Shown piece by piece: positions 124-59,516 of a stretch of 64,000 bases of DNA. Position 1 is the stretch's first letter; every line of letters starts with the position of its first letter. The DNA comes from a virus (taxonomy: Duplodnaviria; Heunggongvirae; Uroviricota; Caudoviricetes), in IMG/VR virus record IMGVR_UViG_3300032038_000006; one strand, written 5' to 3'. The notes beneath the pieces are model-generated. The model did no database searches. It saw nothing but the letters and a program-made list of their open reading frames with translations, and was not told the DNA's origin. The position numbers and the translations under genes were made by a program.

Positions 124-1284
124 ATGAGTACAGAAATGATATATCCAAATCCTCCATAGTTCTATGGAACCGATGGAGCAACTGGATTAGTCTCATATAT
201 CGGCGGCCCTAATATCGGATATTCAGACGGCGCGCCATTCGTTTCGGCGGCACTTCCTTGGGAACCCTTCCCTACAGCAAAAACTTCTGTGCCGCCAGTC
301 AATAAAAATGAGAAGATGTGGGGTATGACTTATGGATACTTCGCAAATAGGGGCGAAATTAAATCTGCTGAGGGAATAGAATCTCAGGAGCGTATGTATA
401 AGCTCAATAATAATTGGGTTTGCTTAACAATAGTAAACTACCAAGACACATATCATTCAACTCGAATTTATGCAGACCACTTGGCAACGCCAACGGAAGG
501 CGATATTAAAGAATTTGTCAGGGCGGCACATAAACGTGGGGTTAAAGTTTGCTTAAAACCAATGGTACATTCAAGAGATAATGTCTGGAGAGCCCATATC
601 GGCTTTCCAGACCTCAATATGGATGACCTCAATGCTTATTGGGGACCTTGGTTTGAAAGCTATAAAAACTTTATTCTCAGCTATGCAGAAATAGCACAAG
701 AATGTGGAGCAGAAATGCTATGTATCGGCTGTGAAATGCTTGGTACTGAGCACCGTAAGTATGACTGGGAATATATAATTAAAGAAGTCCGTCGTGTCTA
801 TAAAGGTAAAATTGTTTATAACACTAATCATGACCATGAAGATGACCAACAATGGTTTGAGCTTTGTGATTATCTTGGTACTTCTGCTTATTATCCAGTC
901 GGGGCAGAGTACCTTGACGGACCAGTAGATAATAGCTACGGCTCTCTTGTAAAAAGATGGTGGGAAATTCGTTATCGTCTTGATGCTATTGCTAAGGACC
1001 GCGGCAAACAATTCATCTTTATGGAAGTAGGATGTCGCTCAGTAATGAATGCTTCTGCTCATCCTTGGGACTTTACAGAAAGCCTTTCATATGATGAAGA
1101 TGAACAGTTGAATTTCTATATGTCTTGTATGGAAGTATTCAAAGATGACCCGTACTTTGCTGGAGTTTTCTGGTGGGATTGGCCGACATTCTTGCCAAAG
1201 AAGCATGGCGCTGATTTCTACATAATTGATAAGAAAGCAGAAGATTATCTCCAGCAATTCTATGGAGCGATGAATAATGTCTGA
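124..1284 (+). CDS. glycoside hydrolase-like (TIM-barrel GH26/GH113-like) protein; in-frame TAG at 157
   Basis: GGGAGG RBS plus ATG at 124. ORF is continuous through the TAG into the conserved domain. The track start at 289 is a GTG with no RBS. Confidence 0.55.
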
Positions 1285-5812: not shown

Positions 5813-6562
5813 ATGGGCGTAATAATTATGACAGATACTACTGATATACCGATTACAATGATTGGTGAATATGCAGGAGAATGTTGGGGAGCGAATACTA
5901 AAGACCACGAAAAGAATTATCAGCGAGGACTTGATTGTATCAAATGTAATCACGGCAGAACTATGGAGTTCCCGTAGGTTTATATGAAGATAACAGGTTA
6001 TTCAGCTCGTGTAATTCGTGAACTGTACACCCATATTGCTGGCGGCCCCACCCGTTTGCAAGCTTCTACTCGTTATATTGATTATGGAAATTTTGAGTAT
6101 GTAACTCCACCAAGTTTACAGGGGTCAGCATTGGCTGTTTATCAGAATATGATGAAGCAGATTTCTGATGCGGCGATACTTCTTGAAAAGACTTATAAAG
6201 TTTCAAGAGAAGACGTTGGTATGTTACTTCCTTTAGGTATGACATCAACTGTTGTTATCAGAACAAATCTTCGTCATTTAATTGATATGTCACATCAGAG
6301 ACTTTGTAGCAGAGCCTATTGGGAGTTCAGAAAGTTAATGAAAGAGATTATCGAAGCTCTTGCTTTTTACTCTGATGAATGGGCAACTATTGTTAAAGAG
6401 CTTAAATTATTTAAGCCTAAATGTGAAGTGCTCGGTTTCTGTCCTGAAGATAAGACTTGTAAGAGAAAGCCAATTAATGATGTGGCAACAAGAGATGCAT
6501 TACTTGCTCAATATCCATTTATAGTAGGAGTTGACTTAGCTCCAGAGGTGAATACCGAATGA
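5813..6562 (+). CDS. thyX: FAD-dependent thymidylate synthase ThyX; in-frame TAG at 5975
   Basis: GGAGGG RBS plus ATG at 5813. ThyX-like HG...EF and R..H...S..RY segments. The N-terminus is recovered only by reading through TAG. Confidence 0.65.
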
Positions 6563-7590
6563 TATGGATATTGGTTGTATTACTTGGTATCGTATGTGGC
6601 GGCATTACATATGCCGTCTGCGATATTTTATCGGTTAAGTCTCTTAAAGGTAAGTTAAAGTTTTCTTCCGAATAGGAGCAAGTTAAGAAAGGACTTATTG
6701 AGAAGAAAGATGCCGCCGTCAAGGAAATGACGGATGAAATCCAAAAGGAGATTGCGGGAAAACAGGCATCATTAAGAGAATACACCTCTATGCTCGACGA
6801 GAAGAAAGCCCAATATAATACCGATGTACAAAGACTTGACGCGCAATATATAGCGACTCGTGAAGAATATGCTAAAATGGATAGGGAAGCTGAACTTGAG
6901 CGTCAAAAAGAAAATGCTGAAATCGTTGCCGCGGCAACAGCAGAACGAGAAAAGAAGATAGCTGGTGTTCAGGCTCAATATGAGAAAGATAAGGAGCAGT
7001 TGGCTGTAAATTTTTAGACATTCAGCGACGAAATAAATTTGAAAAAGGCGGCGTTGACTGAAGAAATTAAAGCCTTTGAACAAAGACAGGCGGCAATCGT
7101 AGCTTAGTTTAAGAAAGATGAGGAAGTTCGTAAGCAACGTGACTTCTATCACATTACTCTTGATACTTTAACTCTTTCAGATATAGCTAAGTTAAAGTCT
7201 ATGGCACCTGGCTTCTCTCGTCCAGAAATCTTTTATAAACTTCTATATGAGACTTACTATAAAACTCAGATAGAGGAACTCTTTAAACGAGTTCTTGGTG
7301 ACAAGAAAGATAAGGGCGGCATTTATAAGATTACTAATATAAATGATGAAAAAGTTTATATTGGTAAAACAACAAAGTTTATAGACCGTTGGCGTACTCA
7401 TGCTAAGCGTGGCTGTAATATTGAACGAATAGCTGGTCAAATCTATGACGCTATGTTCAAAGAAGGTTTGGAGAACTTCACTTGGGAAATCGTAGAGGTT
7501 TGTCCAAAAGAAGAACAAACTGAAAAAGAAAAATACTGGATAGAATTTTATCACTCCGACCAGTATGGATATAATATCAGAAAGGGATAA
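6559..7590 (+). CDS. TM helix + coiled-coil + C-terminal GIY-YIG nuclease domain, one ORF if TAG (6673, 7015, 7105) is sense; GIY-YIG domain is 7201..7590
   Basis: No stop other than TAG between 6559 and 7590. Contains GIYKITN...YIGKT and YGYNI. Confidence 0.45.
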
Positions 7591-11565: not shown

Positions 11566-11790
11566 ATGAATTTGATATTGATACTTTCTATTCTTGGAGC
11601 TATCTTTAGTCTTGGCGGAAATATCCTCATTATGCTGAAAAAACGTAGTGGCTGGATAGCTTGGATAATAGGAAACTTCCTATGGATAGCGGTCAATATT
11701 GTAGGAGTATTTAATTTGCCAATGGTTTTAATGTATATAGCCTATTTCATAATTAACATTGGCGGATTTGTAAAATGGAAAGGAGACTAA
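11566..11790 (+). CDS. small membrane protein (3 TM)
   Basis: Hydrophobic ORF downstream of a promoter. Confidence 0.45.
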   Translation: MNLILILSILGAIFSLGGNILIMLKKRSGWIAWIIGNFLWIAVNIVGVFNLPMVLMYIAYFIINIGGFVKWKGD

Positions 11791-11792
11791 AT

Positions 11793-12698
11793 ATGCCAAG
11801 ATTATTTTTCACAGTAGGAATCCCTGGCTCTGGTAAGTCCACTTTATATAAGACTTATTTCTCTGAGGCGGCTTATGTATCTTCTGACCAGATACGTCAG
11901 GACGTATTCGGAGATGTTAATGACCAGACTCATAATGCAGGAGTATTTAACTTAATGTTAAATCGTACTCGCGACCTTTTAAAGGCTAATGTCGACGTTT
12001 ACTACGATGCAACAAACATTAATGCTAAGCGTCGTATTGGCTTCTTAAAGGAGTTATCTAAGATACCTGACCTTGTAAAGATATGCGTTCTTTGTGTACC
12101 TCCTTTCGAGACTGTAAAGGAGCGTAATGCTTCTCGTGAGCGTGTCGTTCCTGAGTTCGTTCTCGACCGTATGCTTAGAAATTTCGAGATACCTGACTAT
12201 GCTGAGGGTTGGGATAAGATAATGACTTTCGGTAATGACAATAACTTCGATGTAGTAGGAGAAATGCTTTTCGAAGCTGATAATGTTTCTCACGATAATC
12301 ATCACCACTCTTTATCTATCGGCGGACATATGAGAGCGGCGGAGAAGTATATCGCTGATAAGATGATTCAGATAGTAAGAGACTCATCTCATTCTGATTT
12401 ACTAAGAACTGCGGCACTCTTCCACGATATTGGTAAGCCTTACTGCAAGGTTTATCACGATGCTCGTAACAATCCTACAGAAGAGGCGCACTTCTATAAT
12501 CATGAGAACGTAGGAGCATACTTCTACTTATCTCATTCTGGTTGTTCTGACCGTAATCTCTATATCGCTCTTTTAATCAACCACCATATGGACCACTACA
12601 AGGGCGAGAAGTATATGGAGAAGATGGCAGTTCGTTATAGTGAAGAATTTATGCGAGACCTTGAGCGTCTTCACGAAGCTGATAAGGCGGCGCACTAA
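11793..12698 (+). CDS. polynucleotide 5'-kinase (P-loop) fused to HD-domain phosphohydrolase; Pnkp-like RNA repair enzyme
   Basis: GIPGSGKST Walker A. HD motifs HHHSLSIGGH and ALFHDIGK. Confidence 0.65.
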   Translation: MPRLFFTVGIPGSGKSTLYKTYFSEAAYVSSDQIRQDVFGDVNDQTHNAGVFNLMLNRTRDLLKANVDVYYDATNINAKRRIGFLKELSKIPDLVKICVLCVPPFETVKERNASRERVVPEFVLDRMLRNFEIPDYAEGWDKIMTFGNDNNFDVVGEMLFEADNVSHDNHHHSLSIGGHMRAAEKYIADKMIQIVRDSSHSDLLRTAALFHDIGKPYCKVYHDARNNPTEEAHFYNHENVGAYFYLSHSGCSDRNLYIALLINHHMDHYKGEKYMEKMAVRYSEEFMRDLERLHEADKAAH

Positions 12699-13407: not shown

Positions 13408-14001
13408 ATGAAGAAACCAATAGTTGTAAACCTATTTGCTGGTCCTGGCGCAGGAAAATCTACTGCGGCGGCTTATATCTTTAGTTAGTTAAAGATGAAG
13501 GGAGTAAATTGTGAGCTGATAACAGAGTTCGCAAAAGATAAAACTTGGGAGAAGAACTATTCCGCATTAAGATGTTAGGAATATGTTTTCGGCAAACAGT
13601 CCTATAAAATGGACAGATGCCGCGACCAAGTAGATGTTATCATCACAGATAGCCCATTGCCGCTCGGAGTATTTTATAATCAGAATCCAGTCTTGGGACA
13701 GCATTATGAACATTTAGTAATGGATGTGTTTAATACTTATGATAACATTAACTATTTTATCAATCGAAAAAAGCCTTACAATCCTGTTGGCAGAAATCAG
13801 ACAGAGGAAGAAGCAAAAGAGATTGATGTCAGAATAAAGAAGTTCCTTTAGGTCCATGATATTCCTTATTGGATAAAAGATGGAACTGAAGCAGGATATA
13901 CAGACATTTGTAATGACGTGTTGGATTATATCCATAAAGCACAAACAAAAGAATGGCTAAGCAATGAATATGATAAATTTGCGACAGAATATTACGATTA
14001 A
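13408..14001 (+). CDS. P-loop NTPase/kinase (dNMP-kinase-like); in-frame TAG at 13486, 13576, 13849
   Basis: RBS AAAGGAGGG. GPGAGKST Walker A. Continuous only if TAG is sense. Confidence 0.5.
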
Positions 14002-15723: not shown

Positions 15724-15797
15724 TTCCCCATCGTCTAATGGTAGGACGCTTGCCTTTGAAGCAAAGAATAGGGGTTCGACTCCCTTTGGGGAAACCA
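15724..15797 (+). tRNA. tRNA-Gln(TTG)
   Basis: Cloverleaf; T-loop TTCGACT; CCA encoded. Confidence 0.8.
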
Positions 15798-16888: not shown

Positions 16889-16917
16889 TTGACAATTTTT
16901 ATAAAATATGTTATAAT
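16889..16917 (+). promoter_or_regulatory. sigma70-like promoter upstream of the suppressor tRNAs
   Basis: TTGACA n17 TATAAT. Confidence 0.65.
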
Positions 16918-17014: not shown

Positions 17015-17090
17015 TGCCGCTTCGTTTAGTTGGCGAGGACAACGGACTCTAACTCCGTCTTACTGGGTTCGATTCCCAGAGCGGCAACCA
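17015..17090 (+). tRNA. tRNA-Sup(CTA) amber suppressor no. 1
   Basis: Anticodon stem ACGGA/TCCGT; loop CTCTAAC; type I; A73. Confidence 0.7.
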
Positions 17091-17093
17091 TAA

Positions 17094-17170
17094 TTCTCCG
17101 TCGTCAAGAGGCTTAAGACAGCAGTCTCTAAAACTGCCACTCCTTGGTTCGAATCCAAGCGGAGAAACCA
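17094..17170 (+). tRNA. tRNA-Sup(CTA) amber suppressor no. 2 (acceptor TTCTCCG resembles the phage tRNA-Gln genes)
   Basis: Anticodon stem GCAGT/ACTGC; loop CTCTAAA. Confidence 0.75.
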
Positions 17171-17194: not shown

Positions 17195-17320
17195 ATGCAG
17201 TACCTAATAGTTGTTTGTGTAACTGTGTTTCTTTGGAAGCTCATAGAAGTTATGCCAGACATCATCGCCGCAACCCATGACAAGAAGAAGACAGACCCCT
17301 ACAAAGACAATCATTATTAA
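17195..17320 (+). CDS. small membrane peptide (41 aa)
   Basis: RBS AAAGGAGG plus ATG. Confidence 0.3.
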   Translation: MQYLIVVCVTVFLWKLIEVMPDIIAATHDKKKTDPYKDNHY

Positions 17321-18180: not shown

Positions 18181-18209
18181 TTGACATTTTTTATAATTTA
18201 TGTTATAAT
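18181..18209 (+). promoter_or_regulatory. sigma70-like promoter
   Basis: TTGACA n17 TATAAT. Confidence 0.65.
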
Positions 18210-18652: not shown

Positions 18653-18729
18653 CGGCGAGTAGCGCAACAGGCAGAGGCAATGGACTTAAAATCCATTCAG
18701 TGTGGGTTCGAATCCCATCTCGCCGACCA
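18653..18729 (+). tRNA. tRNA with anticodon TAA (Leu-decoding) in a type I body
   Basis: Stem ATGGA/TCCAT; loop CTTAAAA; A73. Confidence 0.55.
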
Positions 18730-48217: not shown

Positions 48218-48904
48218 ATGGGAATAATATATAAAATAACTAATTTAATTAATAGAAAAGCTTATATAGGATAGACAAGAATGTCCTTAAAAGCCAGAAT
48301 GTATAAACATTATTCTCACTCTAAAGAAGAAGGCGTAACAGGAATTGACGCTGCGATAGGAAAATATGGAAAAGAAAATTTTCTTATAGAAGTTATCGAA
48401 GAATGTGACGACTCTTTATTAGATGAAAGAGAAAGATACTATATTGAATTGTATTCTACTTATGCCAACTATGGGAAAGGATATAATTTAACATTAGGCG
48501 GACAAGATGGCTTAGGCTCATTAAGACAATTTACTATTGAAGAAGTAAATGATGCTCTTTCAAAAGGTGGAAGTATTAAGGTGGCTTCATAGCTATTAAA
48601 ATGTGCAGAAAGGACTCTATCTTCCTTTATGAAAAAGAATGGCATTAAAACTCCTTATAAAAGTAAGGGGAGAGTTGAAAATATCCTTAATAAGGGAAGA
48701 TAGTTTAAAGAAGGAGACTACGTAAAACCTGTTTACTGTAAAGAATTAGACAAGTCTTTTCCTTCTTTAAAAGATTGTGCTTAGTTTTTAATAGATAACG
48801 GTTATTCTAAAGCATCATCTATGGAAGCTGCACGAAAAGGATTAAGCAGACATTTAACAGGAGGTCGGCAGAGTTATCTACGAATGCATTTTGAGTATTT
48901 GTAA
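48218..48904 (+). CDS. GIY-YIG homing endonuclease with C-terminal DNA-binding modules; in-frame TAG at 48272, 48590, 48701, 48782
   Basis: GIIYKITN..YIG[TAG]T, then ...YNLTLGG. AT-rich. Continuous only if TAG is sense. Confidence 0.55.
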
Positions 48905-51296: not shown

Positions 51297-51390
51297 GGAG
51301 ATACTGTAGCCAAAAGGTAAGGCGGCGGACTGCAACTCCGTGAACAGGGCAATCCCCTTCCTGTCGGTTCGACTCCGACCAGTATCTCCA
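51297..51390 (+). tRNA. tRNA-like with anticodon GCA (Cys) and a roughly 20-nt variable region; no encoded CCA
   Basis: Acceptor GGAGATA/TATCTCC; loop CTGCAAC. Confidence 0.4.
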
Positions 51391-51981: not shown

Positions 51982-52067
51982 CCCGCCAAATGGGTCGGTA
52001 GCCTAACGGTTAGGCAGGCGGCTGTTAACCGTCGGAATTTATTTCCTATGCAGGTTCGAATCCTGTC
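51982..52067 (+). tRNA. tRNA-Asn(GTT)-like with extended variable region
   Basis: Loop CTGTTAA; 86 nt. Confidence 0.45.
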
Positions 52068-52195
52068 CGTCCCGCCAAAAACGAAAATTGTGGTAGCTTA
52101 ATAGTCATATGGTAAACGCTACAAGAGGGTGTGGATAACGTCACAGCGACTGCACTGGAGCGACACCTCTGTCCGCTTAATCGCTCCAATTAAAT

Positions 52196-54089: not shown

Positions 54090-54163
54090 TTCCCTTTCGT
54101 CTAATGGTAGGACGCCTGTCTCTGAAACAGATAATGTAGGTTCGACTCCTGCAAGGGAAACCA
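54090..54163 (+). tRNA. tRNA-Gln(CTG)
   Basis: Loop CTCTGAA; body matches Gln(TTG). Confidence 0.75.
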
Positions 54164-59439: not shown

Positions 59440-59516
59440 GTGGTTATGATGCAACTGGCAGACATCTTCGGCTAAGAACCGAAGTCTTGAGAGTTCGAAT
59501 CTCTCTAACCGCACCA
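59440..59516 (+). tRNA. tRNA with anticodon AAG in a type I body
   Basis: Stem CTTCGG/CCGAAG; loop CTAAGAA. Confidence 0.5.

Follow-up and report, generated by a model that had tools for sequence, protein, structure and literature searches.

Recoded phages and the suppressor tRNA pair

Phages in which the amber codon TAG is read as glutamine ('code 15') have been described among the Lak, crAss-like, Garnet, Amethyst and jumbo phages (Borges et al., 10.1101/2021.08.26.457843; Peters et al., PMC9523058; PMC13037316). Glutamine is the only meaning reported for TAG in such phages, with the host glutaminyl-tRNA synthetase (GlnRS) proposed as the charging enzyme, and in the published model the suppressor tRNAs come from early regions compatible with the standard code and the TAG-rich genes are translated later. 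More than one suppressor gene can be present, as three genes for tRNA-Sup-CTA have been reported for the gut phage phAss-1 and two for its relatives in the proposed Phassvirus (PMC10607447). The present analysis concerns a 64,000-nucleotide stretch of the Caudoviricetes record IMGVR_UViG_3300032038_000006 (the window), which was found to possess two adjacent tRNA genes with the anticodon CUA, namely tRNA1 (17015–17090, plus strand, 76 nt) and tRNA2 (17094–17170, plus strand, 77 nt). It is probable that these are two non-identical amber suppressors which insert glutamine and serve a genome where TAG has been recoded to this amino acid.

The locus shares several features with the code 15 phages, these being a phage CUA tRNA, the concentration of TAG in a subset of genes, the alignment of TAG with glutamine, the location of the suppressors in a nearly TAG-free region with host-type promoters, and the absence of any phage GlnRS among the genes seen. 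It differs from them in having two structurally different suppressors in tandem and in the occurrence of TAG in a few genes of the early region as well (ThyX, an ATPase and homing endonucleases). Phage phAss-1 (~136 kb) is likewise large, with many tRNAs, TAG read as glutamine, more than one tRNA-Sup-CTA and no dedicated synthetase (PMC10607447). However, the contig examined here is larger (at least 181 kb) and belongs to a different phage, with 46 tRNA genes and a transfer-messenger RNA (tmRNA) gene in the window alone. Recoding of TAG to glutamine with the phage's own tRNA-Sup(CUA) is already well documented, and several Sup-CTA genes in one genome have been described too. What this locus would add is a clade that retains two old and structurally distinct suppressors of glutamine type, one of them with a D arm resembling that of tRNA-Glu.

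Only two of the 46 tRNA genes predicted by ARAGORN, tRNA1 and tRNA2, carry the anticodon CTA. Both match Rfam family RF00005, with bit scores of 53.4 and 53.6, respectively (gathering score 29), and both fold into canonical cloverleaves with an acceptor stem of 7 bp, anticodon and T stems of 5 bp each, a D loop containing G18G19, a T loop containing TTCGA and a CCA end encoded in the gene. The acceptor stem of tRNA1 is TGCCGCT/AGCGGCA followed by A73, with a D stem of GTTT/GGAC, the anticodon loop CTCTAAC and a variable loop of 4 nt. That of tRNA2 is TTCTCCG/CGGAGAA, again followed by A73, with the anticodon loop CTCTAAA and a variable loop of 5 nt; its D stem consists of 3 bp enclosing AAGAGGCTTAA, the D arm reading GTC-AAGNGGNNNAA-GAC, with an 11-nt segment AAGAGGCUUAA. 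Common to the two tRNAs are the first pair U1-A72, G10, the anticodon C34-U35-A36 and A37. The genes are spaced 3 nt apart and are ~65% identical to each other, indicating that they are not recent duplicates. The initial annotation had described two tandem, structurally sound tRNA(CUA) genes with these anticodon loops and the acceptors TGCCGCT and TTCTCCG, and had taken both for amber (UAG) suppressors; ARAGORN, Rfam and the cloverleaves agree with this, and no alternative fold was found which shifts the anticodon of either tRNA.

The automatic ARAGORN label for these genes is 'Pyl', which is due to the anticodon only. This label and the CUA anticodon are what speaks for tRNA-Pyl, with TAG encoding pyrrolysine. 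In tRNA-Pyl the anticodon stem is of 6 bp, the variable loop measures 3 nt, the D loop is small and lacks G18G19, and the T loop does not follow the consensus. The likeness is confined to the anticodon, as tRNA1 and tRNA2 are canonical cloverleaves with G18G19, TTCGA, 5-bp anticodon stems and variable loops of 4 and 5 nt. They are rejected as tRNA-Pyl on structure, no pyl genes were seen among 128 called genes of the contig, and TAG aligns with glutamine (see below); the probability of this explanation is practically nil.

A sigma-70-type promoter (TTGACA, a 17-nt spacer, TATAAT and a TG extension) is located at 16889–16917 on the plus strand, ~98 nt upstream of tRNA1. It matches the consensus at 12 of 12 positions, in addition to the TG extension, and presumably drives the two-tRNA unit. 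The pattern TTGACW-N14-TG-N-TATAAT was found in 33 copies in the window, all on the plus strand, for a chance expectation of 0. These extended promoters span positions 1854 to 61880 (e.g., 16889–16917, 18181–18209, and 21461–21489), and the bases flanking them are also conserved, so that they form a dispersed repeat of 40–60 bp. Overall, the window has the appearance of an early region with a high density of promoters, which would fit transcription of this region, the suppressor pair included, early in infection by host RNA polymerase with the primary sigma factor. Directly after tRNA2 and before the next promoter lies an open reading frame (ORF) of 41 codons (17195–17320), which has a ribosome-binding site and whose product is hydrophobic in its N-terminal half. 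Its co-transcription with the suppressors is possible, and the stretch is kept in L002, a closely related viral contig.

In-frame TAG codons and their meaning

By exact-protein look-up, the window was placed at positions 13,944–77,943 of the metagenomic contig k141_101128 (180,954 bp; ENA ERZ27256903), on which the gene calls treat TAG as a sense codon. The TAG codons were recounted over 128 gene calls (contig record 5,220–87,256), of which 100 terminate in TAA and 28 in TGA, with no in-frame TAA or TGA inside any gene. A total of 77 in-frame TAGs was obtained, spread over 23 of the 128 genes. Of these, 42 (14.9 per 1000 codons) are located in six large genes immediately upstream of the window, with 21 in a single gene of 944 codons, compared with a mean of 2.0 per 1000 codons in the other 122 genes. 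Within this six-gene block TAG (42) is more frequent than CAA (38) and CAG (17), which would make it the commonest putative glutamine codon in the TAG-rich genes seen.

Under the standard code, eight of the 105 ORFs of the window terminate in TAG. In five cases the ORF either overlaps tRNA genes or is a fragment of a longer gene that contains TAG, and the other three (36870, 47702, and 49244) are followed by TAA or TGA within the next 2–32 codons. The number of real TAG terminators in the window may therefore be three at most, and for these three read-through and termination would both fit. The many in-frame TAGs, the absence of other in-frame stops and the few TAG ends together indicate that the genome is TAG-recoded and that tRNA1 and tRNA2 have clients. 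For annotation this means that TAG should be translated as sense on this contig, as otherwise large genes are fragmented.

The same counts bear on the suggestion that the suppressors act mainly against the host, disturbing its proteome by read-through of host TAG stops. Such a role has been proposed for crAss-like phages which have suppressor tRNAs but no recoded genes, and the location of the pair in an early region rich in strong host-type promoters would suit it. However, the phage's own proteins appear to need suppression, as some of the 77 in-frame TAGs lie within conserved domains of ThyX and the ATPase, and an effect on the host could be an added consequence rather than the main role. 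As the principal function it is considered highly improbable.

Genes with in-frame TAGs in the window include, each on the plus strand, a ThyX-like gene (5813–6562; Pfam Thy1) with a single TAG at 5975–5977, and an AAA_28 ATPase gene (13408–14001; Pfam AAA_28) with three (13486, 13576, and 13849). In both, the TAGs fall within the domains recognized by Pfam; a sequence search of the PDB with the ThyX-like protein returned no match. A GH113 glycoside hydrolase gene (124–1284, plus strand) has one TAG (157) near its called N terminus, where the called start is upstream of a GTG start and the gene includes the TAG; accordingly, an exact-protein look-up of the ORF beginning at GTG gave no match. 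Three TAGs are present in a GIY-YIG endonuclease gene (6559–7590, plus strand; TAGs at 6673, 7015, and 7105) and, as called, in a second GIY-YIG-type gene (48281–48904, plus strand; 48590, 48701, and 48782). Together with a NUMOD4/HNH gene (15327–15842 of contig record L001, minus strand), the homing-endonuclease genes hold three to four in-frame TAGs each, suggesting that these mobile genes are adapted to a recoded genome. Other recoded contigs contain many close relatives of the HNH family.

For the meaning of TAG, alignment columns were scored from homologues read directly in DNA, or from broad families dominated by standard-code sequences. Homologues read in DNA were used because database proteins from recoded relatives receive Q by assumption, making their use circular. 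In ThyX the TAG falls in the motif E(F/Y)PQVY, and 15 of 17 viral homologues have glutamine there, encoded by CAA or CAG. Codon 57 of the ATPase (TAG 13576) corresponds to glutamine in 145 of 150 family representatives, and columns with a glutamine majority number only three of 197 in that family alignment. One TAG of the HNH endonuclease on the same contig (codon 97) lies within an NL(E/Q)W motif; a homologue of 81% identity, belonging to another recoded phage, has CAA (glutamine) there and in turn carries TAG where this phage has glutamine, i.e., a reciprocal exchange. The remaining TAG columns are variable. Crude BLOSUM sums over eight family columns were 11.7 for Q, 9.0 for E, and 6.3 for K.

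Three further comparisons were set aside. A GIY-YIG column with glutamic acid in 8 of 11 homologues was given no weight, lying as it does in a low-complexity stretch rich in lysine and glutamic acid. The alignment of the 735- and 944-aa paralogues (29% identity) gave mixed partners, including two glutamines, and is too divergent, and a 54%-identical homologue of the 268-aa gene product, with E, D, K, A, T, Q, and F as partners, decides nothing. From the columns retained, glutamine is most likely the meaning of TAG, being the best supported in this small sample, with glutamic acid a possible minor or second reading. This agrees with published surveys and proteomics for such phages.

Amino acid identity of tRNA1 and tRNA2

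It had been proposed initially that tRNA1 may carry an identity other than glutamine. This was not supported, as tRNA1 has a more orthodox tRNA-Gln body than tRNA2. A pattern describing the tRNA1 body with a glutamine anticodon (TGCC...T.GT, a CTYTGAC loop, a 4-nt variable loop and GTTCGA) was found in at least 120 viral contigs and at least 120 bacterial contigs. Among the viral matches listed, ARAGORN calls tRNA-Gln at 118, with 79 unique sequences; the bacterial matches listed include Sphingomonadales, Verrucomicrobiota, Acidobacteria and many Clostridia/Oscillospiraceae. Positions left free by the pattern also resemble tRNA1 (the GTCT...GGAC D arm and the GGCA 3' acceptor), and in several matches the arm ACGGA-CTCTGAC-TCCGT is that of tRNA1 except for G36 in place of A36. 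Among 1,476 unique tRNAs from all fetched loci, the TGCC start occurs in 89 tRNA-Gln and four suppressors, against five of ~1,300 tRNAs of other isotypes. When the anticodon was masked, tRNA-Gln made up 28 of the 30 neighbours nearest to tRNA1, a figure somewhat overstated by the enrichment of the set with matches to a pattern modelled on tRNA1. The related contig L022 encodes a tRNA-Gln(CUG) of this type, with the acceptor TGCCGTT/AACGGCA, A73, the loop CTCTGAC and a variable loop of 4 nt. Judged by sequence, tRNA1 is a standard UGCC-type tRNA-Gln design with a CUA anticodon, a design which, with its GUYU/GGAC D stem, CUNNNAC loop and variable loop of 4 nt, is otherwise seen with CUG or UUG. 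Origins from tRNA-Trp, Tyr, Leu, Ser, and Lys, whose anticodons differ from CUA by a single base, were rejected on the first pair, the discriminator and the type of variable arm.

The acceptor of tRNA2, as had been noticed at the outset, resembles that of the two phage tRNA-Gln genes, namely tRNA-Gln(UUG) (15724–15797, plus strand; acceptor UUCCCCA) and tRNA-Gln(CUG) (54090–54163, plus strand; acceptor UUCCCUU, loop CUCUGAA). The UUC start, U1-A72 and A73 are common to all three, and U2-A71 and C3-G70 of tRNA2 match both genes as well. The anticodon loop CU-CUA-AA parallels CU-CUG-AA of the resident tRNA-Gln, and the sole BLAST match of tRNA2 among the phage-collection records is a tRNA-Gln. 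When nearest neighbours were ranked with the anticodon masked, glutamine was the top isotype for tRNA2, with 15 of 30. The description 'supE-type' holds as regards a glutamine body with a CUA anticodon, but neither tRNA2 nor tRNA1 is a point mutant of a resident tRNA-Gln, as they are ~59–68% identical to these genes. The identity of tRNA2 is likely glutamine, a rating which takes into account that its first pair is the common determinant, that CUA draws a tRNA to GlnRS and that its 5-nt variable loop is unlike that of tRNA-Glu.

Of the elements of the tRNA-Gln identity class, U1-A72, U35, A37 and G10 are found in both tRNAs, while G36 and the full acceptor set of Escherichia coli GlnRS are found in neither. 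U1-A72 is a determinant read by GlnRS, by GluRS2 and by the bacterial GatCAB. Within the window and the related contigs, U1-A72 with A73 occurs in 6 of 6 tRNA-Gln, in 9 of 9 CUA tRNAs and in one initiator-like tRNA, and in no others; all eight tRNA-Glu of the clade have G1-C72 or C1-G72. The two suppressors fall outside the tRNA-Glu class by U1-A72 and CUA, and tRNA2 also by its 5-nt variable loop, its D arm being the only Glu-like part. Where tRNA-Gln has G36, tRNA1 and tRNA2 have A36, which is what makes them suppressors. GlnRS accepts A36, its recognition being dominated by U35 and the acceptor end, and the supE suppressor shows that this change is tolerated in E. coli. As for the E. coli set G2-C71, G3-C70, and G73, tRNA1 has G2-C71, C3-G70, and A73, and tRNA2 has U2-A71, C3-G70, and A73. 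The tRNA-Gln genes of the phage share the set of tRNA2, and position 73 of cellular UGCC-type tRNA-Gln may be U, G, or A, indicating that the E. coli set is not general.

E. coli supE (glnV44), derived from tRNA-Gln(CUG), is similarly a tRNA-Gln body reading UAG through CUA. It is a single-base mutant of a resident gene, whereas tRNA1 and tRNA2, at ~59–68% identity to the tRNA-Gln genes of the window, appear to be old, selected lineages, and they differ from the E. coli identity set in A73 and in the 2-71 and 3-70 pairs. The suppressor tRNA-Trp su+7 and a tRNA-fMet with CUA are mischarged by GlnRS, so the anticodon CUA alone pulls towards glutamine (PMC9976931). This would favour glutamine charging of tRNA2 in spite of its D arm, although both are laboratory cases in E. 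coli.

A number of observations weigh against glutamine as the amino acid carried by both tRNAs. Both tRNAs have A73 and not G73, with 2-71 and 3-70 pairs which depart from the E. coli set. The combination of A73 and U35 also resembles determinants of the lysyl-tRNA synthetase (LysRS). In tRNA2 the D arm, with its 3-bp GTC/GAC stem, is of the tRNA-Glu type, and two additional nucleotides follow G19; in Staphylococcus aureus, GatCAB rejects tRNA-Glu by an extra U20B in the D loop and has U1-A72 as a positive determinant. Only ~8 TAG columns are informative, with glutamic acid the runner-up; over 15 DNA-verified pairs E and Q score about equally, and the column of HNH codon 97 is glutamic acid in 76 of 83 distant homologues. 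No family was recognized for the TAG-rich proteins encoded upstream, and their label as 'late or structural' is conjectural: PHROGs gave no family for five of them, and homologue searches returned no related loci for a 456-aa upstream protein and no match for the 355-aa C-terminal piece of a 1105-aa upstream protein. Finally, the identity of both tRNAs is deduced from the genes themselves, and the route of charging would depend on the host.

One alternative reading is that tRNA1 delivers glutamine and tRNA2 is glutamylated by the glutamyl-tRNA synthetase (GluRS) and poorly amidated by GatCAB, or is charged by another enzyme such as LysRS, giving a mixed (glutamine/glutamic acid) or two-route reading of UAG. 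An anticodon-blind search with the D-arm pattern of tRNA2 recovered 43 viral tRNAs, of which 25 were Glu, seven CUA, six Cys, three Met, one UUA and one Gln, the extra D-loop bases could act as a GatCAB antideterminant, and within the clade tRNA2 is about equally near to tRNA-Glu and tRNA-Gln when the anticodon is masked. The Glu-type HNH column and the parity of E and Q over the DNA-verified pairs point the same way, as does the existence of CUA tRNAs with a tRNA-Glu body on other viral contigs. However, U1-A72, U2-A71, C3-G70, and A73 of tRNA2 are those of the phage's own tRNA-Gln, from which the eight clade tRNA-Glu differ, and the variable loop is of 5 nt compared with 4 nt in Glu tRNAs. 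Frequent insertion of glutamic acid would also damage two near-invariant glutamine columns, those of ThyX and the ATPase. At the Glu-type HNH column the closest homologue verified in DNA has CAA (glutamine), exchanges of Q to E are frequent in any case, and published surveys report phage TAG as glutamine only. On this balance a mixed or two-route reading appears unlikely.

tRNA2 thus presents mixed signals, a glutamine acceptor with a Glu-like D arm, and would be the ambiguous member of the pair if either is. A division of labour, founded on this union of a Gln acceptor end with a Glu-type D arm bearing the extra bases by which GatCAB rejects tRNA-Glu, is similarly judged unlikely. If it were true, UAG would be read as a mixture of glutamine and glutamic acid, or there would be one suppressor for each bacterial route to Gln-tRNA (GlnRS versus GluRS with GatCAB), allowing the recoded genome to work in either kind of host. 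The Glu-bodied CUA tRNAs mentioned above are found on contigs L317 (1828–1876), L349 (2911–2959), and L358 (8227–8275) and resemble tRNA-Glu throughout, having an acceptor of GGCCC type with G1-C72, the D arm of tRNA-Glu and a variable loop of 4 nt. A UUA (ochre) tRNA on L323 (2237–2285) shares the D-arm type of tRNA2. These Glu-bodied suppressors and the UUA tRNA are candidates for stop-codon reading other than as glutamine in phages.

Returning to glutamine insertion by both tRNAs, the window would be part of the early region, dense in promoters and rich in tRNA genes, of a jumbo phage of 'code 15' type with a genome of at least 181 kb. Host RNA polymerase would make one short transcript of both tRNAs from the sigma-70-type promoter, and host enzymes would process them, CCA being already encoded. 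Glutamine would then be added by host machinery, either by GlnRS or by a non-discriminating GluRS followed by GatCAB; either route is possible since both read U1-A72, which is present in tRNA1 and tRNA2. The charged tRNAs would outcompete release factor 1 at UAG, allowing full translation of the TAG-containing genes. Both would belong to the glutamine identity class as two old and separate tRNA-Gln-like lineages, tRNA1 having the widespread UGCC-type body and tRNA2 combining the clade's UUC-type Gln acceptor with a body whose D arm is Glu-like. The possession of two suppressors would most simply provide capacity and robustness. Should both accept glutamine, which is the most probable case, there is nothing unusual in the finding for such phages, and it forms a well-resolved addition to what is known of stop-codon recoding in phages of the gut and rumen type. 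The pair would nevertheless be a convenient test bed for a question raised in the recoding literature, namely which host enzyme charges phage suppressor tRNAs.

Related phages and other features of the window

Both tRNA types were found together in three viral contigs (L002, L022, and L024), and L062 also contains type 1. The L002 locus is 95–98% identical to that of the window, and in L022 and L024 the tRNA genes are 75–96% and the coding DNA ~73% identical. Megablast searches of a phage collection with the tRNA region, and with the locus of a relative, returned no match. In L022 and L024 a tRNA-Ser lies between the suppressors and type 2 adjoins the tmRNA gene, both suppressors being retained. 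The type-1 alignment, which includes the L022 tRNA-Gln(CUG), has 104 of 104 stem cells paired, with 12 pairs changed on both sides and with the first four acceptor pairs and A73 invariant. Type 2 is more conserved than type 1 and shows two compensatory pairs, in the T stem. This persistence, together with the intact pairing and the compensatory changes, argues that both are functional tRNAs under selection and not chance occurrences.

It has to be considered whether one tRNA does the decoding and the other is redundant, decaying or a decoy for a host nuclease targeting tRNAs. The L062 contig has type 1 by itself at the syntenic position, preceded by a promoter of its own, and an apparent tRNA-repair gene set in the window would fit pressure from host anticodon nucleases. 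However, L062 was read over 4.7 kb of 89 kb, and type 2 may lie elsewhere on it. The perfect cloverleaves, the encoded CCA and the CUA loop unchanged across relatives in both types also speak against decay, as do the 12 compensatory pairs of the type-1 alignment and the two in the type-2 T stem. This explanation is accordingly regarded as quite improbable.

Paired CUA tRNAs were also observed elsewhere. An unrelated 33-kb viral contig, L016, has a tandem pair of different CUA tRNAs 4 nt apart (12025–12174, minus strand), in the same order as here, with the CTCTAAC loop first and then CTCTAAA on an anticodon arm identical to that of tRNA2. Contigs L019 (1673–1966) and L067 (6202–6340) have two CUA tRNAs each. 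The tmRNA gene of the window is located at 47800–48143 and encodes the short tag ADYAIAA, with counterparts at 7441–7791 in L022 and 4350–4717 in L024.

The apparent tRNA-repair set consists of a T4 Rnl1-like RNA ligase (41245–42375), a second RNA ligase (PF09414; 29695–30627) and an AAA_33 kinase-HD phosphohydrolase fusion (11775–12698), which suggests that the numerous tRNAs are defended against anticodon nucleases of the host. Among the 46 tRNAs of the window there is no tRNA-Trp, while the relative L022 has one (2185–2258). Five Leu-anticodon tRNAs of 75–77 nt (18653–18729, 20182–20258, 20407–20481, 20866–20942, and 59440–59516) do not have the long variable arm usual in bacterial tRNA-Leu, and a 'Cys' tRNA of 91 nt (51300–51390) and an 'Asn' tRNA of 86 nt (51992–52077) are unusually long; all of these identities are putative. 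Amid the tRNA genes, a 136-aa fragment of an alanyl-tRNA synthetase is encoded at 27956–28366, matching positions 375–436 only of PF01411 with 37 bits. The first tRNA array is followed closely by a gene (22162–23643) for a 493-aa DUF2828/vWA protein, which is 35–38% identical to proteins of large Bacillus phages, annotated in one record as an RNA-binding protein.

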